64,000 bases of DNA from Nitrososphaerota archaeon (lineage in GTDB: Archaea > Thermoproteota > Nitrososphaeria > Nitrososphaerales > Nitrosopumilaceae): assembly GCA_028867755.1 (NCBI GenBank), contig JAGWFT010000001.1, positions 1-64,000 on the forward strand. Direction: 5' to 3'. Of the stretch, positions 7,449 through 31,900 are shown piece by piece. The stretch's first letter is position 1. Each line of letters starts with the position of its first letter. Both the position numbers and the translations under genes were made by a program. The notes under the pieces are model-generated. The model was not told the origin of the DNA. It was given only the letters and a program-made list of their open reading frames with translations, and made no database searches.

Positions 7449-9554
7449 CTACGCAAGACCGATTCTTACATCTACCACTTTGCAGCCCTTGCCCTTTTCA
7501 AACACAAGAACTGGGTTTAGGTCAAGCTCTTTTATCTCTTCAAAATCGGTGACAAGCTGAGAAATTTTCTGGATGCATTCTGATAACTTTTGCACATCAG
7601 ATGGCTTTTCGCCTCTTACACCCTGCAACAACTTATTTGTCTTGATAGACAAGATCATCTCATCTGTTTCCAGATCAGTAGTCGGTGCTATTCTAAAAGT
7701 AACATCTTTGAGAACCTCGACGTAGATTCCTCCCATTCCAAACATTACGACCGGTCCAAATCCTGGTTCCTGTTTTGAACCAATGATTGTTTCCTTGCCT
7801 CCCTTTATCATCTCTTGAACCAAGACTCCTTTGATTATCGCTTTCTTGTCATATTTTTTTGCGTTCTTAATTATCTCCTTGAATGCTGTTTTTACTTCTT
7901 GTGGGGTCTTCATTCCAACCTTTACTCCACCTGCATCAGATTTGTGAATTATTTGCGGCGATGCAATCTTCATCACAACTGGATATCCAATCTTTTTTGC
8001 TGCAGCAAGTGCCTCTTTTTCTTTTGTAGCAAGAATGCTTTTTGGGAGAGGGACTCCATACGCCTTTAAAACTTCTTGACCTTCCTCTTCTAGTAAATTC
8101 TTTCTTCCATCTGAACGTACCTTGGCAAAAATTTGCTCTACCTTTTTCTTGTTTGCCTTAAATTCCTGAACCTTGCCTTCTGTTGTCTGCGACCAATGCG
8201 TGAATCGTAGCATGGCCTTTAGTGCCCTTATGGCGCTTTCTGCATACTTGTAATGAGGAATACCGCCTTCGGCAAGTATTTCCTTGTTCTTTATTCCCTC
8301 ATCTAGCCCCATAAGACTGGCCAGAATGGTTTTGTTGTGTTTCTTTGAGACGTTTACTATGACCTCTGCTAGTTTGTTATAGTCTAGCGTTGCTGAAGGA
8401 GTACACATTGCAATTACAGAGCCGACATTTTTGTGTGCAAGAACTAGGTTTAGCACGTGATCAAACCTGTTAAAATCTGCATCACCTACAATGTCAACTG
8501 GATTTCTTGATGTGCCCCACGGCGGAATTACTGCGTTAATCTGTGGCCTGATGTCCTCGATACTTGCCATCTTTATTCCAAGCTTTGAGCATGCATCTGT
8601 TGAAATAATTGCAGGTCCTCCTGCGTTTGATACTATTACTAGATCACCTTTTGTTGGAAGCGGTTGTTTTGAAAATGCTGTAGCGTAATCGAACAGCTCT
8701 TCCATGGTATCAACTCTGATTGCTCCTGCCTGTGTGAGAAGAGCATCATAGATTTCATCAGAACCCATGAGTGCGCCTGTATGCGACATGGCAGCTTTTG
8801 CACCTTCTGGACTCCTACCTGACTTTAAAACAAGAACTGGTTTTTTAGCTTGGCTTAGCCTTGTTATTTGTTTACATACTTTGAGAAACTCACGTCCATT
8901 TGCCATGTCTTCAAGATACATGACAATGACCTTTGTTTGATCATGTGTTGCCAACATCTTTAGCATATCAACCTCGTTGAGGTCCACTTTGTTTCCCATA
9001 CTGATAACAGCTGAAAATCCTATTCCTTGTGCACTTGCATCTTCTACCAATGCGGCACAGATTGCACCACTTTGTGAAACTAGTGCAATTCCTCCAGACT
9101 TTGGAGTTATCTTAAGAAAAGTAGAATTCATCATTGTCTGAGGAGCCAGATTCATGACTCCAAGACAGTTTGGCCCTATTATCCTGATGTTGTACTGTTT
9201 TGATATCTCTGCCAATTTTTGTTCAAGTTTTGCTCCCTCTTCGTTTACTTCCTTGAATCCGGCAGTGATTACGATAGCACCCTTGATTCCCTTTTTTCCA
9301 CACTCTTCAAGAACAGTAGGCACGACGTCATTTTTTGTTACCACCACTGCAAGGTCTACTTGCTCTGGAACATCTAGAACACTCTTGTAGGCTTTTTTAT
9401 CAAAGACTGTTTCTCGAGTTGGGCTTATTGGAAAGATCTTGCCGGTATATCCTTTGAGAATGTTTGATGTGATTGCACGGCCCACACTGCCTTCTTTGTC
9501 TGATGCACCAACTATGGCAATTGATTTTGGGGAGAGAAAGAGAGAATCAGTCAT
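7449..9554 (-). CDS. ADP-forming acyl-CoA synthetase, probable 4-hydroxybutyrate-CoA ligase
   Basis: CoA-binding N-terminus (IAIVGAS, IGPNCLG, SQSGA), SHTGA phospho-His, ATP-grasp C-terminus (HKSDAGGV, LDLNP); synteny with abfD. Confidence 0.92.
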   Translation of the reverse strand: MTDSLFLSPKSIAIVGASDKEGSVGRAITSNILKGYTGKIFPISPTRETVFDKKAYKSVLDVPEQVDLAVVVTKNDVVPTVLEECGKKGIKGAIVITAGFKEVNEEGAKLEQKLAEISKQYNIRIIGPNCLGVMNLAPQTMMNSTFLKITPKSGGIALVSQSGAICAALVEDASAQGIGFSAVISMGNKVDLNEVDMLKMLATHDQTKVIVMYLEDMANGREFLKVCKQITRLSQAKKPVLVLKSGRSPEGAKAAMSHTGALMGSDEIYDALLTQAGAIRVDTMEELFDYATAFSKQPLPTKGDLVIVSNAGGPAIISTDACSKLGIKMASIEDIRPQINAVIPPWGTSRNPVDIVGDADFNRFDHVLNLVLAHKNVGSVIAMCTPSATLDYNKLAEVIVNVSKKHNKTILASLMGLDEGIKNKEILAEGGIPHYKYAESAIRALKAMLRFTHWSQTTEGKVQEFKANKKKVEQIFAKVRSDGRKNLLEEEGQEVLKAYGVPLPKSILATKEKEALAAAKKIGYPVVMKIASPQIIHKSDAGGVKVGMKTPQEVKTAFKEIIKNAKKYDKKAIIKGVLVQEMIKGGKETIIGSKQEPGFGPVVMFGMGGIYVEVLKDVTFRIAPTTDLETDEMILSIKTNKLLQGVRGEKPSDVQKLSECIQKISQLVTDFEEIKELDLNPVLVFEKGKGCKVVDVRIGLA

Positions 9555-9603
9555 TTTAACGAGATGGTTTCAAATGGTTATGTATAATAAGTTACCGAGA
9601 TCG

Positions 9604-9960
9604 CTAGCTTCCTAGCATCTTTCCTGCCATGTTTTCCTTTCTTGGAATCCATACTATCTTCAAGTTCTCATATTTGACAGCAAGTTCCCAGGCTTCCATT
9701 GCAAGCGTGCGTAACTCATTTTTATTTATTGCAAATTCATGATTTAACTGCGATACCGTGTTTTTAGAATCACTATAAATTGTTATATCTTCAGGCGAAC
9801 TTTGATATTTTTTCAGCGCTGCAATTATTGCCATATATTCTGCCTCATTGTTTGTTATGCCTGGCTCTTTTTTATAAAACGACTCGCCAGTCTCCTTGAC
9901 AAAAAATCCAAACCCAGAATCTGGCCCTCCTGAGCCATCAACAAAAATACTAAGAGGCAT
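9604..9960 (-). CDS. rnhA: Ribonuclease HI
   Basis: IFVDGS, TNNEAEY, IYSDS, WIPRKEN motifs. Confidence 0.9.
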   Translation of the reverse strand: MPLSIFVDGSGGPDSGFGFFVKETGESFYKKEPGITNNEAEYMAIIAALKKYQSSPEDITIYSDSKNTVSQLNHEFAINKNELRTLAMEAWELAVKYENLKIVWIPRKENMAGKMLGS

Positions 9961-10140
9961 TTTTGTACAACCTCATTAATTTCACACTAGAATTTACAAT
10001 AGATGATTGGTTTGACAGAGACTGGACAACAATGCAAGAAATTACAGACATCACTATAAACTTGAGCAAAATATTTTTGCCAAGCTTGAAATATTTTCGT
10101 TTCACAGATTTTATTTATTCTAGTTACAAATAAACTAAAT

Positions 10141-10425
10141 CTATTGCATTGTTATTTTCAAAAGTACCAGAATTCCCGCAAGCTCTGCTGCATGTACTGC
10201 CAAAAGATATGGCAAGAGTGCCGCTGCATAAAGTTCCATCATTGAGAAATATGCGTAAACTGTTATTATGTTGTGTAGAAAAAGCAAACCCGCAAAAAAT
10301 ATCATCCCCAAAGGAAGTTGGGCCTTTGTTTTTGAATACATCTTGCCAAAGACTCCCATAAGGATACCTAGAACTACCATGTTGGCTCCGGAGACAATTG
10401 TGCTTGCAGTCATTATTAGTTCCAT
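10141..10425 (-). CDS. Small membrane protein (about 3 TM)
   Basis: 94 aa, hydrophobic throughout, directly downstream of a wHTH regulator. Confidence 0.75.
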   Translation of the reverse strand: MELIMTASTIVSGANMVVLGILMGVFGKMYSKTKAQLPLGMIFFAGLLFLHNIITVYAYFSMMELYAAALLPYLLAVHAAELAGILVLLKITMQ

Positions 10426-10450
10426 GTAAGAAAAATCAACCTTGCAAAGC

Positions 10451-10753
10451 TTATTTACTTTTTTCCAATTTGGTTACAATTTCGTCAAATGCGACCAAGT
10501 TGACCTCCAAAAATGTAGATATAAAGTAAGTAGCGCCATATTTTTCTCCTACGCGTGTTATGAGGTTATTTTTTTCAAGCACTCCGATATGGTGCTGTAT
10601 TGCCTTGTAATCAAGACCCAACTCTTTTGCCAATTGGTTGGCATTTAGAGGCCTTTCACGTATGACAGAGATTATCCTCATCCGGTTAGGTCCTCCTTTT
10701 GAGCCCATGAATACAAACCAGAGAAGACGTTTTGCATATGGGTCTGCGGGCAT
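10451..10753 (-). CDS. ArsR-like winged-helix transcriptional regulator
   Basis: RMRIISVIRERPLNANQLAKELGLDYKAIQHHIGVLEKNNLI helix-turn-helix plus wing; divergent from copA. Confidence 0.88.
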   Translation of the reverse strand: MPADPYAKRLLWFVFMGSKGGPNRMRIISVIRERPLNANQLAKELGLDYKAIQHHIGVLEKNNLITRVGEKYGATYFISTFLEVNLVAFDEIVTKLEKSK

Positions 10754-10851
10754 TGTATGCCTTCGTGTACCCTATCTAATTAAAACATCTTCTTGGTTTT
10801 TAACAATTGTAAAGTTCAGGCATTAAGTATGATACAAAATCAGTTAATTGT

Positions 10852-13275
10852 ATGGAACAAAGATCATTGAAAAAAGCTGTGTTGAAGATAGGCGGCATGC
10901 ATTGTTCTGGGTGTGTTAGCTCGATACAACAATCTGTATTACATCTCAGGGGAGTAGAAAAGTGTGAAGTTAATTTGTTATCAGAAAAAGCAGTCATTGA
11001 GTATGATCCTGAACAATCTGGGGTTGACAGCATTGAAGACTCGATTTGCAAGATGGGGTACAGAGTAATTTACTATGATGCTACATTTGTTCTAAGTGGG
11101 CTTGCTGATTTATCAGATGCTCATATGCTAGAGAGTGAGCTGGACAAAGTAGATGGAGTAAAACAGGTTTCTGTAAATTATGGCAACAGCCATTTGTCAT
11201 TGCGATACAACCCAGAAATAATTTCGCTTGGAGACCTTAGACAAAAGATATCGCACCTTCATTATACCATAGTAAGCGAAGATCTTACAGTATCTTCTGA
11301 ACATGTTGAATCTGCCAACTTGAAAAAATATTTTCTTGTATCACTAGCACTTGCAATTCCTGTAATACTTTACAGCTACCCAGAAGTTTTCAAAATTATT
11401 CCTTTTTCAAAAAGTGACTTGGCTGCATATATCATGTTTGGGTGTGCCACAATCATACAGTTTGGTGCTGGCAGTAGGTTTTACCTTGGAGCATATCGCA
11501 TAGCAAAGCTACACTCTGCCAACATGGACACACTTGTTGTCACTGGCACAACAGCCGCATATCTTTTTAGTGCAACAAATCTTTTTCCAACACCAAACTG
11601 GCAACACTTTGCGTTTGATGCATCATCTGTAGTGATTACTTTTATCTTGCTTGGGAAATATCTTGAGAACAAGACCAAGGCAATAACCTCTGGCACCATA
11701 CGCAAGTTGCTTGAGATACAGCCAAGAACTGCAACAGTGAGAAGAGACGGTATTGAAGTCGAGGTATCAGTTGATGACATAAGGCAAGATGAGGTCATTT
11801 TAGTAAAACCTGGCTTGAGAGTACCCACAGATGGAACGGTAATTGATGGCAACTCTTCAGTGGACGAGTCTATGATAACTGGGGAGTACTTGCCGGTAAG
11901 GAAAAAAGTTGGCGACAGTGCAATAGGTGGTACAATCAACAAGGATGGGATACTTGTCATCAAGGCTGTCAAGGTAGGACAAGATACACTGCTTTCTCAG
12001 ATAGTCAGGATGGTAGAAGACTCGATATCTACCAAACCTCCTATACAGAGACTTGTTGATCTTGTGGCAGGAAGATTTGCTTTTGCAGTAATGGCAGTTT
12101 CTGCTGTTACATTTTTTTTGTGGTTGGAGTTTGGTTTGGGAAACATACATCTTGCTTTGATTCCTGCAGTGTCAATACTTGTAGTGGCATGCCCCTGTGC
12201 ACTAGGCCTTGCAACCCCTACTGCAATAATGGTGGGTGTCGGAAAAGGCGCCCACAACGGTATACTGTTTAAGAAAAGTGAGACATTTGAGATTCTTGAC
12301 AAAGTAAGTGTTGTTGTTTTTGACAAGACTGGCACGCTGACACATGGAGAGCTGTCTGTTACTGATGTGATACCACTAGATAGCACAACTGAATCTCAAA
12401 TCATTGTAACAGCAGCATCAATTGAAAGATATTCTGAGCATCCAATTGGACTTGGAATTGTAAAAAACAGCAAAGAGGTTGGTGTGACTCTTTACGATGT
12501 CTGCGATTTTTTGTCTAGTCCCGGACTGGGAGCCAGTGGCAAAGTAGGAGAGAACAATGTACTAGTAGGCAGCGTCCAGTTTGTGGAACAAAAGGGAGTT
12601 GATCTAGAAGATTCAAAAAGTATTATCAAAAAGATTCAGGAGGAATCAAAAACAGTTGTTGCAGTTTGCATCAACTTGAAACCTGTTGGGCTGATAGCAC
12701 TACAGGACACACCTCGTTCCGAGTCAGGTGCAGTAGTTGACGTGCTGAGGAAAAAAGGCATATGGCCAGTAATGCTCACAGGCGATAATGAGATAACGGC
12801 AAGGGCCATTGGAGCAAAGATAGGAATTGACAAAGTAATTGCAAATGTATTGCCACAAGACAAGTCACGCATCATAAAAGAACTGCAAAAAGAAGGAAAA
12901 ATAGTTGCAATGGTTGGAGACGGCATAAATGATGCACCTGCCCTCAGTCAGGCAGATGTAGGAATTTCTTTGGGCTCTGGCACAGATGTTGCATTAAAAG
13001 CTGGAAATATCATTCTTGTGAAAAACAATCTTTGGGATATCATCACTGCCTTTGATCTTGCAAAAAGAACTGTAAGAAAGATAAGGCAGAACATTGCCTA
13101 TGCCTTTGCTTATAATATTATACTTATTCCACTGGCAGGACTAGGCATGTTGTATCCTGCACTAGCTGGTGCTGCTATGGCTGCATCTTCTGTATCAGTG
13201 ACGACAAGCTCCCTTTTGTTAAAAAGGTGGAATCCAAAGAAAAGACCACAAATTTACATAACTGGCATGACATAA
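10852..13275 (+). CDS. copA: Cu(I)-exporting P1B-1 ATPase
   Basis: GMHCSGC HMA domain, TGE, ACPCALGLATP, DKTGT, SEHP, GDGINDAPAL, YN and MAASS transmembrane Cu ligands. Confidence 0.96.
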   Translation: MEQRSLKKAVLKIGGMHCSGCVSSIQQSVLHLRGVEKCEVNLLSEKAVIEYDPEQSGVDSIEDSICKMGYRVIYYDATFVLSGLADLSDAHMLESELDKVDGVKQVSVNYGNSHLSLRYNPEIISLGDLRQKISHLHYTIVSEDLTVSSEHVESANLKKYFLVSLALAIPVILYSYPEVFKIIPFSKSDLAAYIMFGCATIIQFGAGSRFYLGAYRIAKLHSANMDTLVVTGTTAAYLFSATNLFPTPNWQHFAFDASSVVITFILLGKYLENKTKAITSGTIRKLLEIQPRTATVRRDGIEVEVSVDDIRQDEVILVKPGLRVPTDGTVIDGNSSVDESMITGEYLPVRKKVGDSAIGGTINKDGILVIKAVKVGQDTLLSQIVRMVEDSISTKPPIQRLVDLVAGRFAFAVMAVSAVTFFLWLEFGLGNIHLALIPAVSILVVACPCALGLATPTAIMVGVGKGAHNGILFKKSETFEILDKVSVVVFDKTGTLTHGELSVTDVIPLDSTTESQIIVTAASIERYSEHPIGLGIVKNSKEVGVTLYDVCDFLSSPGLGASGKVGENNVLVGSVQFVEQKGVDLEDSKSIIKKIQEESKTVVAVCINLKPVGLIALQDTPRSESGAVVDVLRKKGIWPVMLTGDNEITARAIGAKIGIDKVIANVLPQDKSRIIKELQKEGKIVAMVGDGINDAPALSQADVGISLGSGTDVALKAGNIILVKNNLWDIITAFDLAKRTVRKIRQNIAYAFAYNIILIPLAGLGMLYPALAGAAMAASSVSVTTSSLLLKRWNPKKRPQIYITGMT

Positions 13276-14765: not shown

Positions 14766-15353
14766 TCAATTTTCCACTGTAAAGTGGTTGATCGAGACAT
14801 GGCCCCACTCGTCGTCTCCCACTATAGTATACACTCCTGGTGTTAGTGGTTGGAATTTCTGTCCTTGATAGAATCCGTTAAACGCAATATGAGATTGTAG
14901 TGTAACTTGATAGTTGGTCGAATTATAAGTCTCAATTGTTGCCTTGTTGCTTGAAGGCTCAAAGACATAGTCTACTATACCAATTGTCTTGCACATGTAA
15001 ACGCCGCTCTGGTACAATGGCAGACGTTTGCCATCAGTCATGTTCTCAATTGAATAATTTCCCTGAAAAAGGGCCATACCAAATGGCAGGTGGAATAGAC
15101 ATGGCTTGATGCTCCATTGTTTTACAGGCCAGTTATGTTGTGGAATAAGTGTCAATGTATCTGGAGACGTGTTGGCAAGTGCAATGTCCATTGCAATCCC
15201 TTGCCCTGCCTTTATCTCAGTAGAGTTTACAGATACAGCAAGAGAGAGCACGGATGGTGGAGTATTCTCAGAGCTAGATTGTTGTGGCAGGTTGAACATG
15301 TGTGGGGAGAGCAATGCAATTATTCCAATTGTTACAATGACACCAATTCCCAT
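14766..15353 (-). CDS. Membrane-anchored or secreted hypothetical protein (start may be AUA at 15386)
   Basis: N-terminal hydrophobic anchor, beta-rich body with two Cys, ends GVYTIVGDDEWGHVSINHFTV. Confidence 0.75.
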   Translation of the reverse strand: MGIGVIVTIGIIALLSPHMFNLPQQSSSENTPPSVLSLAVSVNSTEIKAGQGIAMDIALANTSPDTLTLIPQHNWPVKQWSIKPCLFHLPFGMALFQGNYSIENMTDGKRLPLYQSGVYMCKTIGIVDYVFEPSSNKATIETYNSTNYQVTLQSHIAFNGFYQGQKFQPLTPGVYTIVGDDEWGHVSINHFTVEN

Positions 15354-15382
15354 CGCTGCAATGATGTAAAGATTTAGTGGTT

Positions 15383-15877
15383 TTATTTTCCTCCACCCAC
15401 TCTTTGTTTCATGCCGCTCATACCTCGGCTAGATACCATACCATAGAAAATTAAAAGTGAAGCAATGCTTGCAGCAAGCACAAGTCCTGATGCTGGAAAC
15501 TCTGGCACAGGAGTTGTGGTAGATTTGCTTTGAGTAATAACAAACCCATTGATTCTAGTACTTGCTGTTATGTTCAGGTTTCCTGGAGAAGCTGAAAGTG
15601 GAACCTTGAACTGGAGGTTAAAGTTTCCATTTTGGTCAGACTGTACGGTTCGAATAAGGATAAGATTTCCCTTTGCATCTTTTACTTGGATGGCAACAAG
15701 CTGTCCTGGAGCTCCTTCATTGACAATGCCACTGAGATTTACCGTATCTCCCGGTCCATATGCATTCTTTGATGTGTTAATTGTGATTGACTCGTTGTCT
15801 AGCTGTGCATAGGAGCTAGGTATAGCAAACGCTACCAGAGACAAGGTAGCAATTGCAACTAGTGAGCTTGTTTTCAA
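15383..15877 (-). CDS. PEF-CTERM sorted surface protein with one Ig-like domain
   Basis: TTG at 15877 gives the signal peptide MKTSSLVAIATLSLVAFAIPSSYA; ends VPEFP + TM helix + basic tail. Confidence 0.82.
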   Translation of the reverse strand: MKTSSLVAIATLSLVAFAIPSSYAQLDNESITINTSKNAYGPGDTVNLSGIVNEGAPGQLVAIQVKDAKGNLILIRTVQSDQNGNFNLQFKVPLSASPGNLNITASTRINGFVITQSKSTTTPVPEFPASGLVLAASIASLLIFYGMVSSRGMSGMKQRVGGGK

Positions 15878-15887
15878 TTTGCCATAC

Positions 15888-18500
15888 CTACAAGAGTCCA
15901 ACAAAATACGATAATTCATGTGATTCTGATGTGCCTCCTTTATTTGGCCAGTCTGTTAGTGCGTCTGCATATATGCTGGCAAGACCTGTTGAGGACTGGG
16001 TAGGCACATAATATGGAAGTACCACCTCCGAAGTTCCTGGATTTAGCGTGTACTTGGCTGAGCTTGTTCCCAGTGTGTTTAGGTTAGAGTCAAAGAGATT
16101 GATAGTTACAAGAGTTGGTGCTGCATAGCCTGAGTGGATGTCAACTCTAACAAAGCCACTCTGGCCTCGGGTAAATGTTGATACTGAATTTCCATTCTGA
16201 TCTGTTGGCTGGACAGATGTTATTTGGATACCACTTGAATTGGTAGAGTTGTTCTCCAAGTTTGCAATACATGGGTTTGTTCCATTAACAACTGCCAGAT
16301 CCCCATTACTGTCAAAACATGACTGTACATTGCTGTTTGCAAGGCCATACTCGACGTTGAGGTTGTTGTTTATCTGTACAACCTGTGCATGGTTTACTGC
16401 TGCATAGTTGTCAAATGTTTGTATTGCTTGGTCCAAGCTTCCGCCGTTATCAAGCACATTTTGCATGGCAGCATTTGCGGCAGAGACTCTTTGCTTCATG
16501 AAATTAAATTCTCCCTCAAATACTCCTTGTGTACGGTTATCAGGTATTGTAGAAAGGAAGGAAGCAAATGCTGCGTTTGGAGTGGTAGCTGCATTAGACT
16601 GCTGGAGTGCTGTCAGGTCTTGCTTGAGCTTGCTTGCTGCTGCTAGTCTTTGCTGTTGTACTAATTCGTTGTCAATTTTTACAGCAGTTTCGTTTCCGAG
16701 TATATTTGCTACTTGTTGTTTTGATGTCTGGATCTCTTGCAGTATTTTTTGCGCCATAGGATCATTTTGGAGCGCTGGACCAAGAAGGGTGGTAAACTGC
16801 GTAACATTTCCTGAGTTGACTGTATTAGATGTGATACTAGAATTTAATGCGTTTAGATTTAGGCTTACTAGGGCAATCGACTTGTCTCCAATGTTTGCTG
16901 CAGTACCGTTATGATATGCAAGCGCTAAAAGTTGTGCTTGGGCAGGACTCATGAATGTCATGCTGTCATTTTGTATAGCAACACCTAGTGTAACCAGTGC
17001 CTGATCATTTGTCATCTTGGCTGCTACATTTGATACAAGAGTGGTTCCATTCAGGTTTTGTGGATGTACGGTACAAGTTTGTGGAGGAGATGGCTTGTAT
17101 GATACTGGAAGCGTGGCAGGATCTTCTAGACTAGCTGAGAGACATGATTCTGTTGTAAGAGGTGTGCCTCCGTTACTTGGCCAATCAGAATACGCGTCAG
17201 CAAATACATCTGCAGTTCCCATTTGGGCATTAGGAGGTATAAAAAATGATAGCGTCATCTGAGAATCTCCTGGATTTATTGTGGATTTGACAGATGCTGT
17301 GCCAATACTACTCTGGTTAGTGTCAAAGAGATTCAGAGTGAGAAGTGTTGGCATTTTCTCGCCAGAAGATATAGAGACCTGGACAAAATTATTTTGGCCT
17401 TTTTTTATCATGGAGACTGGATTTCCCTGTTGGTCAGTTAGTTGCACTGAATCTATTGAGATTCCGTGAGTTTTGATCACGCTGAACTGTGTGGAAGTCG
17501 TATAGTTTTTGCCATCAACTAGTGCTGTTGCAATATCTTGGTAAACACCTATCTGGAAATTGGACGGGATCTTAAACTGTAGCTGCGCTGTACCGTTCTC
17601 GTCTGTAGTTATTGTTCTTGATACAATATCAGTTCCTGTGGGGTCTGCAATTGCAAGTGCGACATTTTGCGAGATTATCCCAGGCAATGATACTTTTAAT
17701 GTTACAACATCGCCATAAGCATAATACGTTTGGTCACTAGTTAGCACGAGCGATGCAGGCAAGATTGGGGTGCCTGTATATACAGTTGCAGAAGATGCTG
17801 CACTGGAACTAGTTGTGTTAGAGTTGTTTATTATTCCTGAGATAACAATGCTTGGCGACTGGACTGACCCAGCACTCGATGAGGACGATGAGCTGCTTGT
17901 TGTGGAGGATATTGAGGAACCATAACCCGAACCTGATGTATCAGAGCCTGATGATTCTATAGGTGCTGGACTAGGCGATGATTCTGAGCTTACCTGCGGA
18001 ATACTTTGACTGGTAGCATTGGTGCTAGTCGAGTTAGATGTAGTCACTGCCACATTATTGTTTGTCTGTGTTAAGTTTTGCTTGGAGCTAGAACTTGTTG
18101 AGTTTGATTGTGTCGAGTTTGAACTGCTAGCAGTATTTGAAGAAGTTACTGTAGAGGTGGTGGAATTTGTATGAGGCGTTGTTGCATTAGAAGTTCCAGT
18201 GTTGTTGCTTGTCACATTTGGTGTATTGTTAGAAGTTTGTGGTGGTGTGGTGGTGCTATTCGTAACTGGTACACTGTTGGAAGTTTGTGGTGGTACAGAT
18301 GTGCTATTTGTAATGGATGTACTGGTAGTATAGTCAGTAAACACCAAGGTAGAAAATGCATTCTGTGGAACAAAAAAGACTGCAGAGATAGAAATAGCGA
18401 TAAATATCGTCAAGGCAAGGTTTCTCCCATATACAGAGGCAGTATTTTTCCAAGTTGCTAGACGTTTTCTGCCAATGGTAAATCGATTAAAATTCCTCAT
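15888..18500 (-). CDS. Large exported protein: Ser/Thr linker, Ig-like domains, helical core and duplicated C-terminal-type Ig domain
   Basis: 870 aa; signal or anchor helix, about 190-aa S/T/N-rich tract, two similar domains GISIDSVQLTDQQGN...DWPSNGG and GIQITSVQPTDQNGN...DWPNKGG. Confidence 0.85.
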   Translation of the reverse strand: MRNFNRFTIGRKRLATWKNTASVYGRNLALTIFIAISISAVFFVPQNAFSTLVFTDYTTSTSITNSTSVPPQTSNSVPVTNSTTTPPQTSNNTPNVTSNNTGTSNATTPHTNSTTSTVTSSNTASSSNSTQSNSTSSSSKQNLTQTNNNVAVTTSNSTSTNATSQSIPQVSSESSPSPAPIESSGSDTSGSGYGSSISSTTSSSSSSSSAGSVQSPSIVISGIINNSNTTSSSAASSATVYTGTPILPASLVLTSDQTYYAYGDVVTLKVSLPGIISQNVALAIADPTGTDIVSRTITTDENGTAQLQFKIPSNFQIGVYQDIATALVDGKNYTTSTQFSVIKTHGISIDSVQLTDQQGNPVSMIKKGQNNFVQVSISSGEKMPTLLTLNLFDTNQSSIGTASVKSTINPGDSQMTLSFFIPPNAQMGTADVFADAYSDWPSNGGTPLTTESCLSASLEDPATLPVSYKPSPPQTCTVHPQNLNGTTLVSNVAAKMTNDQALVTLGVAIQNDSMTFMSPAQAQLLALAYHNGTAANIGDKSIALVSLNLNALNSSITSNTVNSGNVTQFTTLLGPALQNDPMAQKILQEIQTSKQQVANILGNETAVKIDNELVQQQRLAAASKLKQDLTALQQSNAATTPNAAFASFLSTIPDNRTQGVFEGEFNFMKQRVSAANAAMQNVLDNGGSLDQAIQTFDNYAAVNHAQVVQINNNLNVEYGLANSNVQSCFDSNGDLAVVNGTNPCIANLENNSTNSSGIQITSVQPTDQNGNSVSTFTRGQSGFVRVDIHSGYAAPTLVTINLFDSNLNTLGTSSAKYTLNPGTSEVVLPYYVPTQSSTGLASIYADALTDWPNKGGTSESHELSYFVGLL
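18232..18314 (-). repeat. 48-bp-period tandem repeat (16-aa TNST..PPQTSN unit)
   Basis: gaagtttgtggtggt at 18232 and 18280, each followed by gtgctatt(c/t)gta. Confidence 0.8.
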
Positions 18501-18676
18501 ACTCTAACACCCAAAATATCTTCGTAGAGCAGTGCCCGTAATTCCCAAACTTCATGGCATCTTGTCTGTAAATAATGTATAATGGATTGCGACACTTTGT
18601 TAAGGAACAAAGTTAACGATGATATAAAGATTAGACAGGAATCATACTACAATATACAAGTTTTCAGTATACAGAA

Positions 18677-19594
18677 TTATCGTACTAGTTTGAGTCCTTC
18701 GCTTGTTATCCATTTTGCCTTATCTAATGCGAATCTGTTATTACATTTTACACATATGTAATCATGTGCTGGTTCTGGAAATTTATCTCCACAATCATTG
18801 CATATGTAGTAATTGTCAATTGCTTTATAGTCTACACCAAGTATTTTTATTTCCTTTCGACATTTAGGACAAGTATTATTTGTGTATGATTCATCTATGG
18901 ATACATTGCCACACTTGAAATGCTCAATTAGTTTTCCTTGTTTAAAATTAGAACTTTTGCAAGAAGGGCAGTAAAAATTCATAGCAATTCTCATAGAATT
19001 ACATTGGTTACATGTGATCTCTTTGATATCTTCTATTCTCTGTATTCTTCCTTCAGACTCGAGTTTTTTTACATATTCTTTGACAACCTCGACTTTTGTG
19101 TCTGAATATTCTGAAAGCCTCATCACACTAATTCTAGTAGACATTTTTAGAAAAGATTCTATTTTCTGTCCATGATCAAAAGTCTGTTTTTCAATATCTG
19201 GCTCTTCTTCTTCCAGAGTCTTGATGACATTTTTTAGATTTTCATATCGTATTGGCTTCTCTACATATTGATATGCACCATCCCGTAAAGCTGCTTTGAT
19301 CTGTTCTTCATTTTTTGCGTCAGCAGTTTCTATGATGATTCTCGTATCAGGCCTTATGCTAAGTATGTTTGACATTATTTCATTTGCAGTCATGTCGGGA
19401 AGGTGATAGTCAAGAAAGACAACTGGCACAATTCCTTTGTTTACCAGATCAGAAAATGACTGTATTCCAGCCTTTCCTGTATTACACGTATGAACATCGT
19501 GATAATCTAGTTTCTTTAGAAATTCATGGATAAGCATGGATATGGCAAGACTATCTTCTATTATCAATATACTATTTTTTTTGTTTGGCATCAT
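18677..19594 (-). CDS. Response regulator: REC + wHTH-like + Cys-rich (TackOD1-like) output
   Basis: IIEDS, FLDYHLPD, IETA, VEKP receiver residues intact; C-terminal CNQC, CPSC, HFKC, CPKC, CNDC, CVKC. Confidence 0.88.
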   Translation of the reverse strand: MMPNKKNSILIIEDSLAISMLIHEFLKKLDYHDVHTCNTGKAGIQSFSDLVNKGIVPVVFLDYHLPDMTANEIMSNILSIRPDTRIIIETADAKNEEQIKAALRDGAYQYVEKPIRYENLKNVIKTLEEEEPDIEKQTFDHGQKIESFLKMSTRISVMRLSEYSDTKVEVVKEYVKKLESEGRIQRIEDIKEITCNQCNSMRIAMNFYCPSCKSSNFKQGKLIEHFKCGNVSIDESYTNNTCPKCRKEIKILGVDYKAIDNYYICNDCGDKFPEPAHDYICVKCNNRFALDKAKWITSEGLKLVR

Positions 19595-19677
19595 AACGTA
19601 TTTTGAATATACACTATATTACTTTTAGAGCATAAATGTAATAGAAATATGACAACAGATATTCAAGGAGTACAAGA

Positions 19678-21633
19678 CTAGTTTATTGCATGTATCTTAA
19701 TCAAATATTCCACAGTATTGACAAACTCTTGGCCAGAAATTAGGCCAGACGACCACCACATTGCATCGTATTTTAGCCAATTTGGAAGAATCTTTAGTTC
19801 TGCATTAGGTGTTACACTTTTTACGATATTTTGTTTTATCATAGATTGCATTGTCTTGAGAAATTCGGAATTAGATACATTATTTTGAGACCATGATTGT
19901 GCACCGTATTTTACCCATGAGGGAATTGCAGATGAATTGCTAGTCTGATTGTTAATTGCATATGAGTTTCCAGTCTGATTATTAATTTCACTGATTTTGA
20001 CTATTTGGAATCCTGCAGTACGAATCATGTCTATCAAAGCCCCTAGTTTTTCTGTCTGTGAAGAGTCTGGAGAATTTATTTTGATTGTATTATTTGCAAG
20101 TGCATAATCTTGAAAGTTTAGAGTTACAACTGCAAACCCATGACTTTGCATACTAGTTTTGATCTGAGACATTATCATATCATTTGTCATGTATTGCAAA
20201 GTTCCGTTTTCTAAATGATAATAACCGGTAAAGACAGTAGCTGGGATGTTTTGGATTTTACCTGAAAAAGCTGCAGGCACGGTAACATCAGAAATAGAAC
20301 TAACATAATTAATTCCATTATCCTGCATGGCAGGAAAAGTATCTTGATTTACCTTTCCATATGGAGGAACAAAGATTGTGGATGTTGCGCCAAGAACTGA
20401 TGATATTTTGTTTTTAGACTGTTCAAGAAGTAAGGCTTGATAAGATTCATCATATGAAGTGAAATCTTCAAAACTCCATCCATTTATTCCAATGTCAATT
20501 AATCGGTTATCTGAATTTATTTGATTCTTGATACTGTTTGTCAATTTGGAATCATTACCAAATGCATTGGAAATTATACCCAAAGTCAAATCTGCATCTT
20601 TTTGTTTGAATGTGTCCAATATTCCGGTCTGAACACTATCCAGCCAATAATCTTGGATATTATCTAGCCTGAATGCCACACAGTTACAGTTTATGGCTGT
20701 TGATTTTGGAGCAGAAGGAGCAGGTACGATGACTGTGTTTTGGTTTCTTACCATACTGAAATTAAGCTTGGTGCCATCAATTGTAACGCTAGAATCTGAC
20801 CACTTTGAGTTATTTTTGAGATCTATTACGTGAAAAACATAATCACCAACTTTTAGATTATAGAAATATGCTTCGCCTTTAGCATCAACTGGAGACTGGG
20901 AAACTAGGTTTCCATCGCTATCTAACAAATTTACCACAAGAGTGCCAGCTAAAGGCTGGATAGTTGAGGATTGATTATTGTACAACTTTACTGTTACCAA
21001 ACTATTAACTATCGATGGCCAAGGCGTGACAACAGTGATCTCTTGAGCTATTCCAGGAAGTAGAAAAACAGGAGAATGAGAATATGAGAGAGTTTTACCA
21101 ATTTTTACATTAGCTACATAATAATCGCTTTGATCAATGGTGGGAGATATCCAAGATCTCAGGGTTTGTCCTTTTGCATCAGTAGTACCTGTTGCCCAAG
21201 TTTTATTGACATCTGACTTGATTTCAACAGTTGCATTTTCTACAGGAGTGGCTTTGTCATTGTATAATACATTTACACGCATGCCTCCAGACAGCGGAAT
21301 GCTGACATCTAGATTTTGTTGCAATTGTTCAAGATCTACATAACGTACTGCAGCATGCATATCATTTGCATATACTTCAACTTTGTATTGGTGTCCTAAA
21401 GGAAGAGACAGTATATTGAAAGGATTGCCTGTGATTGATGATATTTCTCTGTACGGGGTCGCATTGGTATCTTGATAAATTTTTATTGAGATTGGCCAAT
21501 AATCTGCTCTATCGCCGTTGGTGTAAGTTATATTGACTGCAATTGAGCCGGATGTTTCGGCATAAGCTACAAAGTAAAATGAGCCCAAGACAAAAACAGA
21601 AAGTAGGGCAACAAGGAAACGTCGTTCTATCAT
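19678..21633 (-). CDS. Exported polysaccharide-deacetylase (CE4/NodB)-fold protein with N-terminal beta-sandwiches and C-terminal Trp-rich repeats
   Basis: ATG at 21633 overlaps the GT2 stop (ATGA); signal peptide; VAFRLDNIQDYW, FVPPYG; metal ligands appear lost. Confidence 0.82.
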   Translation of the reverse strand: MIERRFLVALLSVFVLGSFYFVAYAETSGSIAVNITYTNGDRADYWPISIKIYQDTNATPYREISSITGNPFNILSLPLGHQYKVEVYANDMHAAVRYVDLEQLQQNLDVSIPLSGGMRVNVLYNDKATPVENATVEIKSDVNKTWATGTTDAKGQTLRSWISPTIDQSDYYVANVKIGKTLSYSHSPVFLLPGIAQEITVVTPWPSIVNSLVTVKLYNNQSSTIQPLAGTLVVNLLDSDGNLVSQSPVDAKGEAYFYNLKVGDYVFHVIDLKNNSKWSDSSVTIDGTKLNFSMVRNQNTVIVPAPSAPKSTAINCNCVAFRLDNIQDYWLDSVQTGILDTFKQKDADLTLGIISNAFGNDSKLTNSIKNQINSDNRLIDIGINGWSFEDFTSYDESYQALLLEQSKNKISSVLGATSTIFVPPYGKVNQDTFPAMQDNGINYVSSISDVTVPAAFSGKIQNIPATVFTGYYHLENGTLQYMTNDMIMSQIKTSMQSHGFAVVTLNFQDYALANNTIKINSPDSSQTEKLGALIDMIRTAGFQIVKISEINNQTGNSYAINNQTSNSSAIPSWVKYGAQSWSQNNVSNSEFLKTMQSMIKQNIVKSVTPNAELKILPNWLKYDAMWWSSGLISGQEFVNTVEYLIKIHAIN

Positions 21634-23093
21634 ATTCCCACTCGATCCACGCTTGTCCAAGTCATTTCCTTTCTAAATAATTGCTCAAACACAGCTCTAA
21701 TTAAAAGAAAATCAAGTATCTGCTTGAATCCTAGTACCAGAAATACTCCGTAGAGAATCAATTTTGGATCTTCATTATCCATCCTAACAGCCAATGCTGC
21801 TTGGAGGATCTGTAAGACTGAGAAGATAGCAAACACCTCAAGAACAAATATCCCGCCCCCAAAAATTGCGGTATAAGCTGCAGTACCAAGTGTAATGAAC
21901 CCAACAAATGGCATGACAACACTTGAGAATACCATGTATGGAAAGACCAGTCTTTGCAAAAGGCCAAATCGTGGGTTTAACAATGCGTCTGAGTGCCTTG
22001 AGAAAACTTGGAGATTTCCACCATACCATCTCTTTCTCTGTTTGTACAAGTTTTTTATGTTCTCAGGAGCCTCTGTGAACGCGACTGCTTTTGTGCTGCC
22101 AGAGATAGTAAGATTTGTCTTTAAAATCTTTAGTGTAACATCAAAGTCCTCTACAAGCGTGTCTTTATGATAATTTCCAATCTCTTCTAAAACAGTTCTT
22201 TTGAAGGCCCCCAAGGCTCCTGGTACTACTGATATTGAACCAAATACATCTAGTGCTCTTCTTGCAATCTGAATGCCTGCCACATATTCTATTGCTTGGC
22301 AAAATGTGAGCCAGTTTTTTCTATTTCTTACTTTGATGTTTCCTGCAACTGCTGCCACATCCTTGTTCATAGAAAATCCTTTAGCCAAGTGAGTTAATGA
22401 GTCCATTCCAATTATTGTATCTGCATCTACCACTACAATAATTTCCCCCGTTGCATAAGCAAGTCCAAAATTAATTGCACTTGCCTTTCCCCCATTTTCC
22501 TTGTGTAATGCCTTGATCTGTTTTTTGTATTTGTTTATTATTTGAAATGTTTTGTCTTTGCTTCCATCATCTACTGCTATGATCTCTTTATCTGGATATT
22601 TTGTTTCAACAAGTGCTTGGATTGTTCTTTCTATGACTTTTTCTTCATTATACGCAGGGACAATTACTGTTAATCTTGGATATGAATTTGGCTCTAATAT
22701 CGTATTTTCTTTGTATTTACCATACAATGCTAACGGCACAAATAACAATGTGTTCCAAAAAGTAAGTGTCAGGCCCCAGAGTAAAATTGCCTTTACTATA
22801 GATTCTTGCAGGGAATAATTGTCAAAGCCAACAGCAACTCCAAGTGCAATAGGCGCGGTAATGAGAAAAATGAGAAAAAACGATGGAATTTTTTTTCCAT
22901 ATCTGAGTCGTGAGGTAAACCTTCCTTGCAAAGTCATAATCTGATATACAACAACAGCAGAACCAAGACCAATTGCCACCATGCTTATGATCGAGAGTAG
23001 CTGGTATGCCATAACCAAAAGAACTCCAATTATGGCCATTGTTATTACTATTAGTACTGGGTCAAAATGGCGCACGTTTGTCATACTAGCCAT
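21630..23093 (-). CDS. Processive GT2 glycosyltransferase (PgaC/IcaA/cellulose-synthase-like)
   Basis: VPAYNEE, DDGSKD, GGKA, DADT, PGALGAF, VEDFD, QRKRW; TM helices at both ends. Confidence 0.92.
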   Translation of the reverse strand: MASMTNVRHFDPVLIVITMAIIGVLLVMAYQLLSIISMVAIGLGSAVVVYQIMTLQGRFTSRLRYGKKIPSFFLIFLITAPIALGVAVGFDNYSLQESIVKAILLWGLTLTFWNTLLFVPLALYGKYKENTILEPNSYPRLTVIVPAYNEEKVIERTIQALVETKYPDKEIIAVDDGSKDKTFQIINKYKKQIKALHKENGGKASAINFGLAYATGEIIVVVDADTIIGMDSLTHLAKGFSMNKDVAAVAGNIKVRNRKNWLTFCQAIEYVAGIQIARRALDVFGSISVVPGALGAFKRTVLEEIGNYHKDTLVEDFDVTLKILKTNLTISGSTKAVAFTEAPENIKNLYKQRKRWYGGNLQVFSRHSDALLNPRFGLLQRLVFPYMVFSSVVMPFVGFITLGTAAYTAIFGGGIFVLEVFAIFSVLQILQAALAVRMDNEDPKLILYGVFLVLGFKQILDFLLIRAVFEQLFRKEMTWTSVDRVGI

Positions 23094-23225
23094 ATCTTAC
23101 TTGGGGCAGATATATGGCGTTTTGATCAATATTGTTTTGCCTGTGAAATAACAAGAACTTCGGATATACAGTTGCAATTAGATGAATTTAGAGAAATTTC
23201 GTAGGTTCCATGCCCTATGTAGGAA

Positions 23226-23299
23226 TGGGTCCACAGGGATTTGAACCCTGGATCTTCGCCGTGTAAGGGCGACGTCATAACCAACTGGACTATGAACCC
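23226..23299 (-). tRNA. tRNA-Val(UAC)
   Basis: Reverse complement GGGTTCATAGTCCAGTTGGTTATGACGTCGCCCTTACACGGCGAAGATCCAGGGTTCAAATCCCTGTGGACCCA; stem TCGCC/GGCGA, anticodon TAC, no encoded CCA. Confidence 0.97.
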
Positions 23300-23599
23300 A
23301 AGCAAGCTCCAATTTAAAATGCATATAAGTCTAAGTGAATGAATGATGTGCCAAGTTTCTGGTTAAACTTGGAATTTCTGTTTTATCCAAGCTCAACATT
23401 TTCTATTTCAAAAAGTTGTTCTAGCTTTTGTATCGTCTTGCACTTGTGTAATGTAAAACAATCATACATTTTAATTCTGGTGTAGTTTTAATGATTGCAA
23501 TTAATTGTTAAGTGTTTTGATGTTCTAGTTTTTTAGAAACAGTAAAATATTAAAAACTATGTTTTGTATATTTATTGTACCGGATTTGGCAGTCTAATA

Positions 23600-28979: not shown

Positions 28980-31900
28980 TCATCTGAACGGTATTGGGTC
29001 TATGCCCATGTGACTTGTATTTCCAGTAGTGCTCATCATTTCATTATCTATCAGATACTGCACTGCCTGCACAAACTCTTGGTCCGAGATGGCTCCTTCT
29101 GCCCAAAACCTTGCATCATTTTTTACCCATACCGGAATGGTCTCAGATGATGATACAGTACCTTCCTGCTGCGGCACTGTTATAATTCCATCTTGCACCA
29201 AGTACTGCACCCCCACCAAAAAGTTCTTGTCATTTATCTTTCCGTCAGACCACCATTTTGCATTGTTTTTCACCCAGACTGGGACTGGCATCTTGTCTTG
29301 TAACAGATTTGGGCTCAAAGACAGCGTCTGGTCTTTTACAGTACCTGGAGTGTTAGTTGCAACAAGATCTGAGAAAGTAGAGTTTGCCTTTTGTGTGGAT
29401 ACAGAATCTGTCACCCGGAATGCACCAACTATCTGCGTGTCCTGCTTGTAGGCTTCCTTGTCCCATGTTCTTATAATAAGATTTGACGTGTCCATGTGGT
29501 TTGCAAATATAATCTCAAAGTCAACTTGTAGTTTATTGTTCACGGTATTGGTGTTAATGTTGACTGACTTGACAAACCCGTCTGGGTCTGTTACCGTTGT
29601 TGTTCCACCATCATATGCTATTATGGTATTGGCATCTGATATCTGGAGATCGCTTCCATGCAGATTAGAAAACAGTGAGACTCCTTGCACGTCATCAGGC
29701 CCATAGTTCTCGTATATCAGCAGTTTTAGACTAGCTGGCTTTCCCACATGAAACGTTGATGTTGGAATGGTATCAGTGTAATTTTCTAGCTTGAAGCCCT
29801 TGCCGTCAATGGTAATAGGATACTCGTCTGATGCAAACTGTGTACCTGATAGTGTGGGTGCTGTAGGAGCATTGTTTGCCCCAAGGATTGCAAGCGCTGC
29901 AATCACACCGCCGATTGCAAACTTGGACGTGTGATCGTCTTGCGCACTTGCCAGAAATAGACACGACGAGAGCTGCGTTACCTGCGTTGATAGCTGGTCT
30001 CCGCTGTCTGCAAATGTTCCGTCATGCTGCCTGTCGTGAAAGACTGAGACATTTGGTATTCCGTTTGTAAATGTTATCTGCTGTGATACAGGCAGGTTCT
30101 TGTTTGCTGTATTGATATCATCGCATGTAAACTCGAATGAAAAAGTACACTGTGCACCAGTACTGCATGCCCCGTTTTGCAGTGAGATATCAACTGGCGT
30201 TCCAAGAAATTGTAGTGTAGAGCCTGCAGCAGAACCGGAAGGTGCTGTTGTGGGAGCTGTAGTCTTGGTATAAGTTACAGTCTGGGCAGTATTTGACCCG
30301 ATTGTTGTCTGGGCTACGATGCCAGACGGCAGTGTGATAACTGCAGTTCCACCTCCTGCCACTGGCACTGCTACTGTAAATGTGCCAAAGCTTCCAGAGA
30401 GCGGTGGCGATACAGAAGTTGATGCAGAAGACGGGGGCGAGGTGTTGCTAGTAAGGCTGTCAGAGCCTGTCCCATGTACTGTTACTATAGTAGTACCAAT
30501 TACTGCAGGGTTGCTACCATCTACTGTATTTATTGTAACATTGAACAGGCTTGGTGTTATCCATGTTCCAGTATATGTCGCAGACCCAAGTGATGGGGTA
30601 AAGGAAAATATGTTTTGCACCTCTGTCTGGCTCACAGTACCTGTACCTCCTGGCTCATTTGTTGGTGCTGAGAATCTAATCAGTAGTGTGTCACCTGCAT
30701 GAAATGTTGTGGCACCATTGGCAGGATCGTTTGCCACAAATGCTGTGATAAATGGTATTGGTGGAGATGAGAAGCTGCCAGAAAGTACCGGAGATGGATT
30801 TGTGGAAACTTGTGCAGTGGCAGCAGCATTTGCAAGACCCGAGTTTGCAATTGGTGTGAATACCAGATTGTTTGATACTGCAACAGGTCCTCCACTTGAG
30901 CCTGCTGTTATTACAAGTGTTGATGGGTCTGACCATGTTCCGGTAAAGTCTGTGCCAAGGTTTGCAGGACACGTGTTGCCAAGAGTAGACGAGCATGAAA
31001 ACAGCAAGTTGAAATTTGCAGGCGTCACACTGTTCTGCTTTCCGCCAAACTTTTGGTTTGTGGGCTGTGAGAAGTGAATTGTTATACTGTTGCCGCTAAA
31101 AAATGTCGTTCCAGAACTTCCTGCAGCAACTATAGATGATATCCTGGGTGATACTCCTGCAGTTACTTGATCTGATACTGCAAGTGATTCTGACAAACTA
31201 GCAGAGGAGGGATTGGATGACACTGTGATTGATGTGGTGTATTCTACTACACGGTTGTTGTTACCGTCAGCCACCCACAGATTGCCAGAAAAGTCAAATG
31301 ATATATCATTTGGAGTATTTAGGCCTCCCTGAGATGCGACAGCTGTATTGGTGGTAAACTGGTTTGTACCGGCAGTCTGTCCTATCTCTAGTGCTGCATT
31401 ATTTCCATCAGAACATGACGATGTAGTACAGGTGTATTCCAGTACCCTGTTGTTGTTATCGTCAACCACCCACATGTTGCCAGAATGGTCAAATGATATG
31501 GAAACTGGAAGATTAAGACCGCTCTGGGTGGTGACACCTGTACTTGAAGTAAACTGGGTTGCACCGGCAGGCTGGCCTAGCTCTAATGCCGCATTATTTC
31601 CATCAGCACATGACGATGTTGCAGTACAGGTGTACTCTAGTACCCTGTTATTCTTAGAGTCAACCACCCACATGTTGCCAGAAGAGTCAAAGTCCATAGT
31701 CTCTGGATTATTCAGGCCACTCTGGGTGGTAGCAGCTGTATTTGAAGTAAACTGGCTTGTACCAGCAGGCTGGCCTAGCTCTAGTGCCGCATTGTTGCCA
31801 TTAGTACATGATGATGTTGCTGTGCATGTGAACTCTAGTACCCTGTTGCTGAAAGTGTCAGCAACCCAGAGGTTGTCAGAATGGTCAAATGAGAGAGCGA

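Follow-up and report, generated by a model that had tools for sequence, protein, structure and literature searches.

Ammonia-oxidising archaea (AOA) have been seen by microscopy to form biofilms with extracellular polymers, and their extracellular polymeric substances have been described (PMC12448741; PMC11561398). Within this biofilm literature neither a synthase nor a polymer nor a control circuit has been defined (PMC12448741; PMC11561398). Which genes, then, could make such a matrix, and what would control them? A stretch of 64,000 nucleotides (nt) from a Nitrososphaerota archaeon (contig JAGWFT010000001.1, positions 1 to 64,000; hereafter the window) carries six genes that the initial annotation proposed as a candidate regulated exopolysaccharide and adhesion system. 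All six co-oriented minus-strand open reading frames (ORFs) were recovered and their domain calls hold. Three of them, encoding a GT2 synthase, a CE4-fold protein (CE4a) and a regulator that joins a receiver domain (REC) to the TackOD1 domain, are kept together across the class, and the three surface-protein genes are only their neighbours. The reading favoured here, with reasonable confidence, is that two separately inherited modules abut at this locus, an exopolymer unit working by the mechanism proposed below and a set of envelope proteins. GT2, CE4a and the regulator are thus presented as a testable candidate for matrix synthesis and its control in AOA biofilms. The genes concerned, and one flanking tRNA gene that lies outside the synthase module and is listed for context, are as follows (aa, amino acids).

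21630-23093, minus strand: GT2 synthase, 487 aa; PF00535 (E 3e-33), with PgaC_IcaA (TIGR03937) as best NCBIfam match
19678-21633, minus strand: CE4a, a CE4-fold protein of 651 aa from its ATG; PF01522 at 37.2 bits (cut-off 23.1)
18677-19594, minus strand: REC-TackOD1 regulator; PF00072 at 59.9 bits, PF18551 at 91.1 bits (cut-off 32)
15888-18500, minus strand: S870, a large envelope protein of 870 aa; MG2 and Wzt_C matches under cut-off
15383-15919, minus strand: PEF178, a small exported MG2/Ig-like protein of 178 aa; MG2 at 30.6 bits against a cut-off of 32.8
14766-15353, minus strand: M195, an N-terminally anchored protein of 195 aa with no Pfam or NCBIfam match
23225-23300, minus strand: tRNA-Val(TAC), found with ARAGORN, 131 nt upstream of GT2

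The window genome (G000, a 1.64-Mb assembly with a completeness of 99.95%) carries amoA, and close homologues of its proteins are labelled Nitrosotalea in source records. The stretch is also present in mine-drainage and soil metagenomes, and the host is an ammonia-oxidising archaeon of an acid habitat. "The genus" below is that of the window genome.

Conservation of the six genes

GT2 precedes CE4a in 9/9 genus contigs first examined and at every same-family orthologue locus fetched later. In the whole window genome just one TackOD1 gene passes the cut-off, and it lies 2 kb from the one GT2 orthologue. Among 53 loci picked by GT2 similarity alone, a TackOD1 gene was found at most three ORFs from GT2 in 31, representing 13 of 16 genera and 5 of 7 families. 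In families other than the Nitrosopumilaceae, TackOD1 stands directly upstream of GT2, co-oriented, with a spacing of -26 to +110 nt and without REC; in G034 a Ras-family GTPase gene precedes it, and in two further families TackOD1 is paired with more divergent GT2s (G030, G025). Across a 400-genome sample of the class, TackOD1 occurs in 104 of 109 GT2-positive genomes as against 79 of 291 GT2-negative ones, and the genus splits into 14 genomes with both genes, 16 with neither and one with TackOD1 alone. These phyletic counts are descriptive, related genomes being non-independent samples. As far as sequence comparison goes, the recurrence of TackOD1 beside GT2 in several families seems hard to ascribe to chance, and the regulated polymer synthesis foreseen in the initial annotation is borne out to the extent that, across genera and families, a phosphorelay-type regulator gene lies near those for a processive synthase and the CE4-fold protein that accompanies it, and that the regulator and synthase genes co-occur in genomes.

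The order of the three genes varies. In G209, whose GT2 is the closest relative of the window enzyme (82% identity), the order is that of the window, GT2 > CE4a > regulator, and no S870 set lies alongside; beyond the trio, on the regulator side, come ribosomal genes, translation genes and a tRNA-Gly (L037:4801-4874, plus strand). In G017, G257 and G250 the regulator lies 44-46 nt upstream of GT2 and the order is regulator > GT2 > CE4a. The fullest cluster, in G257, runs from a histidine kinase (HAMP-PAS-HisKA-HATPase) through a canonical CE4 protein (TFDD, HxxxH) to the regulator, GT2 and CE4a. Two of these genomes, G017 and G257, are unpublished; they are the source of the G257 cluster, of the S870 synteny described below for G017, and of two of the three instances of regulator > GT2 > CE4a. 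G250 and G209 are not flagged as unpublished and give the linkage independently. The trio is flanked by tRNA-Val on the GT2 side in the window and by tRNA-Gly on the regulator side in G209. The genus shows the trio in at least three distinct genomic settings, a pattern suggestive of a cassette that relocates; no att-like repeats turned up.

The surface-protein genes follow a different pattern. Orthologues of the globular part of S870 are present in 22/22 genus genomes and in 0/16 other genera, and their holders include genomes that lack GT2 (G012, G013, G018, G020 and the unpublished G010). At every locus examined, a homologue of PEF178 comes next after S870. In G017, G018 and G001 the block is syntenic (CoA ligase, RNase H, [Cu-ATPase, TRASH], radical-SAM protein, M195, PEF178, S870). 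The S870 block and GT2 are on different contigs in G017, GT2 is absent from G018, and in G001 GT2 > CE4a is divergent from S870 with no regulator between them. The proposal that the six genes are one co-conserved system does not survive these comparisons, the lack of such co-conservation having been named beforehand as refuting it. The pairing of polymer synthesis with surface scaffolds is likewise not supported, as S870 and PEF178 occur throughout the genus irrespective of GT2. Gene-order conservation across the genomes compared thus extends to the linkage of GT2, CE4a and the regulator, and not to the full six-gene order, which was seen in a soil relative of about 95% identity and so at within-species depth. 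S870, PEF178 and M195 therefore look like a genus-core envelope-protein set, a neighbour of the synthase module and no component of it. Because the S870 block is independent of GT2 and the six-gene order is kept only at that shallow depth, the arrangement in the window appears to be a recent juxtaposition of two modules.

The synthase module has a patchy distribution in the genus, being found in about half of its genomes and there in an all-or-none manner with TackOD1; this pattern suggests an accessory trait, one that could separate surface-attached from free-living lineages. The window adds this all-or-none pattern in one genus, and a clean separation of the module from the adjoining envelope-protein genes. 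It also supplies specific candidate genes for matrix production and its control in AOA biofilms, and further genera of the family hold orthologues.

The synthase and its CE4-fold partner

Is GT2 a polymer synthase of the PgaC/IcaA kind? PgaC_IcaA is by a wide margin the top curated family for the enzyme, which aligns to profile positions 35-392 of 407; the score of 216.8 bits is about half the equivalog cut-off of 422.3. An XrtG-associated GT2 family comes second (115 bits), followed by NodC (79) and CelA (55). The motifs of processive GT2s (D, DxD, (T)ED and Q(R/Q)xRW, together with a membrane channel) are all present, and D176, D223/D225, E315-D316 and Q352-R353-x-R355-W356 are invariant across 30 orthologues. 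In an AlphaFold2 (AF2) model (pLDDT 82.7) a GT-A domain sits between about four N-terminal and three C-terminal membrane helices. Foldseek places Chlorella-virus and Xenopus hyaluronan synthases at the top of its matches (TM 0.63-0.65), with BcsA also matched, and the whole-protein fold aligns with channel-forming synthases across more than 420 columns.

A small tree drew its annotated PgaC, NodC and BcsA sequences from plasmid and E. coli records; in it the Nitrososphaeria enzymes share with a haloarchaeal homologue a clade of their own, outside the two bacterial PgaC sequences. HasA was excluded because the plasmid copy was not annotated as an intact coding sequence, and the archaeal clade and its bacterial sister are placed no more finely because the NodC and BcsA branches are long. 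The affinity anticipated in the initial annotation is thus upheld for the processive type, in motifs and fold, and not for membership of the PgaC/IcaA clade. Since motifs and fold fit while score and tree fall outside PgaC/IcaA, GT2 is predicted to be a processive synthase in operation yet no PgaC/IcaA equivalog.

Several variants of the synthase were observed. L029 and L044 (G015, G228) cluster with genus g25, apart from their own genus, which hints at transfer or paralogy inside the family. G088 (L053) has two divergent GT2 paralogues (7992-9842, minus strand; 9958-11928, plus strand), each about 50% identical to the window GT2, at a locus that also has one CE4 protein and one REC-TackOD1. 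In G158 (L066:3282-9149, plus strand) NHL/SGL beta-propeller arrays and DM13 are fused to a C-terminal processive GT2, and a convergent REC-TackOD1 gene lies 13 nt past the end of the fusion; such proteins measure about 1950-2030 aa, and similar long frames are found in G288, G219, G227 and G169. Further afield, a plasmid of Halorussus halophilus (NZ_CP044524.1; L089:2449-5410, plus strand) encodes a GT2 homologue of 37% identity, with overlapping genes upstream for a 145-aa hypothetical protein and a DUF2334 (CE4-like) protein, and therefore shows a comparable three-gene layout outside the Nitrososphaeria.

The GT2 stop and CE4a start codons share an ATGA, a 4-nt overlap, as described in the initial annotation. 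In its AF2 model (pLDDT 81.6) CE4a has a signal peptide, three beta-sandwich domains with a likeness to Gram-positive pilin domains, a barrel and, at the C terminus, a pair of helical hairpins. The degenerate barrel (about residues 318-556) matches CE4 structures with TMt 0.7-0.77, among them the pseudoenzyme BA3943; a sequence search of solved structures with CE4a gave no match. Asparagines 325 and 384, F388 and N506 stand where a second paralogue, CE4b, carries its metal-binding Asp, a pair of His and its catalytic His, so that the FRMDD, HGWNH and LHPQD motifs of CE4b correspond to FRLDN, NGWSF and LNFQD of the CE4a type. This loss is common to all aligned genus orthologues. CE4a therefore has the NodB-homology barrel without the Asp-His-His triad and catalytic His, and is best regarded as a putative pseudoenzyme with a CE4 fold. 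The exported CE4-fold protein of the initial annotation stands as to fold (PF01522, AF2) and signal peptide, and falls as to a catalytic deacetylase, all four residues being replaced.

CE4b lies divergently upstream of GT2 in many genus genomes. In the window genome a canonical CE4b is on a separate contig in unrelated surroundings (G000:C35:268673-270115), and the synthase is thus not paired with an active deacetylase in the manner of pgaBC or icaAB. The protein downstream of GT2 in four other genera of the family has tandem CE4 domains, the first of which retains Asp-Asp and two of three His and the second of which is degenerate like CE4a; in this genus and in one more, each of the two domains has a gene of its own. 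What the window adds is a Nitrosopumilaceae form with a pseudo-CE4 partner and a split between active and dead CE4 domains, a natural case of a pseudo-deacetylase retained beside a synthase.

The C-terminal double helical-hairpin repeat of CE4a (about 85 aa, PxWxK..A..W..G.IS..EF) was found at 22 places in G000, typically at the ends of large open frames, and returned no Pfam match. In the window it occurs at 19681-19941 (minus strand), 1091-1351 (plus strand) and 29046-29288 (minus strand), and the 2030-aa NHL protein of the window is among its carriers. It is probably a surface-anchoring or sorting module.

How do these proteins compare with known systems? As with PgaABCD of E. coli and IcaADBC of Staphylococcus, a processive GT2, for which theirs is the best-matching family, is genetically coupled to a CE4-fold protein, and an extracellular partner would act on the polymer. 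Unlike those systems, the window GT2 falls under the equivalog cut-off and within an archaeal clade, the adjacent CE4 is degenerate with its active-type paralogue unlinked, and the locus shows no sign of cyclic di-GMP (c-di-GMP) control, having REC-TackOD1 in that place. Annotated bacterial pgaC loci do include pgaD, whereas Pfam and NCBIfam gave no match to a small membrane partner of the PgaD/IcaD type among the neighbouring ORFs. BA3943 of Bacillus anthracis (PDB 7bkf, 6hm9) resembles CE4a in combining a CE4 fold with a disabled catalytic site, but belongs to another lineage and has other substitutions; CE4a adds the three beta-sandwich domains, the surface-anchor repeat and the coupling to a synthase. 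NodBC likewise places a GT2 with the same motifs beside a CE4 gene; NodC, however, yields short oligomers and NodB is an active cytoplasmic deacetylase.

The REC-TackOD1 regulator and its proposed control of synthesis

The REC/Cys-rich response regulator of the initial annotation proved to be a REC-TackOD1 protein, with both PF00072 and PF18551 above cut-off. REC is followed by a winged helix-turn-helix (wHTH)-like segment, which precedes the first CxxC, and then by the three Cys4/HisCys3 zinc sites of TackOD1. The receiver residues read from the translation are intact (E13-D14, D62, T90, K113). Eleven zinc ligands are invariant (C195, C198, C209, C212, H225, C228, C242, C245, C265, C268, C281) and the twelfth, C284, is near-invariant. 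A profile of the TackOD1 proteins matched receiver domains among solved structures and nothing else, and a Protein Atlas search with the TackOD1 part gave no usable match. The protein is a clear member of TackOD1 (PF18551/arCOG06883), with an architecture and Cys pattern already described. The function of the domain has been termed obscure, with an association with type IV pilus loci noted (Galperin et al., 2018; PMC5847659), whereas its consistent neighbour here is a processive GT2, which gives an orphan output domain a concrete functional context.

The mechanism proposed for the synthase module begins with GT2, which would polymerise a nucleotide sugar at the inner membrane face, the chain leaving through the enzyme's own channel. 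We infer UDP-N-acetylglucosamine as substrate, which would give a poly-N-acetylglucosamine- or chitin-like chain. CE4a, translationally coupled, would be exported and kept at the surface by its C-terminal double repeat, where it may bind or guide the nascent chain without deacetylating it; deacetylation would fall to CE4b. Phosphorylated on D62 by an unlinked histidine kinase, REC-TackOD1 would switch the synthase. The likeliest route is direct binding of TackOD1 to the synthase as a cytoplasmic regulatory subunit, and the alternative is a transcription factor acting through the wHTH-like segment. The subunit role is favoured because of the start/stop overlaps with GT2 and the membrane-anchored forms of TackOD1, some partners (L059, L061) having N-terminal hydrophobic segments. 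BcsA-PilZ offers a model in which a cytoplasmic module gates a channel-forming GT2 of similar fold (TMq about 0.6), although PilZ is fused to BcsA and binds c-di-GMP, and the candidate gate in the window is a separate zinc-ribbon phospho-receiver protein.

These points can be joined in a broader reading, which we hold tentatively and at somewhat less than an even chance, that TackOD1 is a dedicated control subunit of archaeal processive synthases and the dead CE4 an obligatory extracellular co-polymerase or guide. TackOD1 would then be a functional counterpart of PilZ/c-di-GMP or of PgaD, wired to a phosphorelay in the Nitrosopumilaceae and to Ras-like GTPases or other sensor modules elsewhere. 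On this reading GT2, TackOD1 and the dead CE4 would be the first defined exopolysaccharide machine of AOA.

Several observations weigh against the picture of a linked, regulated exopolymer unit set apart from the envelope genes. Of 18 genus loci, 13 lack an adjacent regulator, though in four of these genomes it lies about 21 kb off on the same contig. No kinase is encoded near the regulator in the window, and G257 alone showed an adjacent one; G000 holds several histidine kinases, some on short contigs, and the cognate kinase may be on an unassembled piece. The short contigs C56, C93 and C104 of G000 were seen to carry pieces of histidine kinases with PAS domains, which share 51-58% identity with the kinase of the G257 module. 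GT2 scores under the PgaC/IcaA cut-off and branches outside the two bacterial PgaC sequences of the small tree, and NodC-type enzymes, which share its motifs, yield short oligomers. One genome, G007, encodes GT2 (residues 3-410) and CE4a as a single ORF of 1054 aa (L028:8376-11540, minus strand). This ORF comes from a fragmented 170-contig metagenome-assembled genome and lacks the last 77 GT2 residues, and could reflect either a genuine fusion or an artefact of assembly or of a frameshift. Two genomes of this subclade, G000 and G001, place the modules side by side and the soil relative retains all six genes, so that a lineage-specific functional tie between the modules is conceivable.

The wHTH-like segment, finally, fits a transcription factor equally well. 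Could TackOD1 be a DNA-binding protein, in which phosphorylated REC unmasks the wHTH and zinc ribbons to act on the promoter of GT2-CE4a? Regulators are often encoded beside their own targets, and the position of the regulator 44-46 nt upstream of GT2 in G017, G257 and G250 is that of an autoregulated operon. A REC-wHTH-TackOD1 architecture has been listed, and a similar Cys insert noted in PriA (PMC5847659). Nevertheless a search for a conserved operator found none: when the sequences upstream of GT2 in the window and G209 are compared, little aligns apart from the tRNA, and the inverted repeats seen are weak. The start/stop overlaps and membrane-anchored forms also better fit a subunit, and transcriptional control by TackOD1 is judged rather unlikely, though it is the strongest of the competing explanations.

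A second explanation dispenses with the matrix, GT2 serving envelope glycosylation or making NodC-like short oligosaccharides and CE4a being an unrelated surface lectin. The presence of Q(R/Q)xRW in NodC speaks for it, as does the occurrence of the module in only 13 of 30 sampled genus genomes, and polysaccharide genes are not induced in AOA biofilm transcriptomes (PMC12448741). Against these stand the alignment of the whole protein with channel-forming synthases, a NodC score of 79 bits beside 217 for PgaC_IcaA, and the obligate pairing of GT2 with CE4-fold proteins, the single-ORF form included, which favours a polymer handled outside the cell. This explanation is accordingly considered improbable.

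The envelope-protein genes and the surroundings of the locus

The weakest explanation, that all six genes are one regulated matrix system in which polymer synthesis is coupled to dedicated surface scaffolds, can claim their co-orientation and short gaps, the six-gene order in an independent soil metagenome and the position of S870 next to GT2 in G001 too, but is very improbable given the distribution of S870 and PEF178 over GT2-less genomes, the separated or divergent blocks of G017 and G001, the trio without surface genes in G209, and AT-rich TATA-like stretches (by eye only) in the 83- and 176-nt gaps. These gaps separate CE4a from the regulator and the regulator from S870, respectively; S870 and PEF178 overlap by 32 nt and a 29-nt gap lies between PEF178 and M195.

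S870 has a Ser/Thr/Asn-rich N-terminal third followed by a globular part rich in beta-sandwiches. Its open frames measure 720-1200 aa, the Ser/Thr-rich N-terminal part being variable in length, and it is put forward as a possible major glycoprotein of the envelope or associated with the S-layer. Identification with a named S-layer protein was considered and rejected, as sources call it a hypothetical or beta strand repeat-containing protein, and no mapping to it could be made from the Nitrosotalea S-layer loci in the literature (PMC4836417). PEF178 has a signal peptide and, at its C terminus, a PEF motif, a hydrophobic stretch and a basic tail. The PEF-CTERM Ig protein of the initial annotation is therefore recognisable by its tail, while the PEFG-CTERM model (TIGR04296) reaches 13.5 bits against a cut-off of 25, and MG2 is likewise under its cut-off. 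The top exosortase-family match in the genome scores 19.4 bits (cut-off 25.7). For M195 the Atlas returns hypothetical archaeal clusters, with BsuPI and Big_14 (Ig-like) as leads.

A genomic island at tRNA-Val was also considered and rejected for want of evidence: the 3' end of the tRNA is not repeated anywhere in the window, and the flanks show no integrase. The flanking genes are of housekeeping type: a Cu P-type ATPase, a TRASH regulator and a radical-SAM protein on one side, and a GT28-like protein, an amino acid kinase family protein, which we read as an aspartate kinase, and a class IV aminotransferase on the other.

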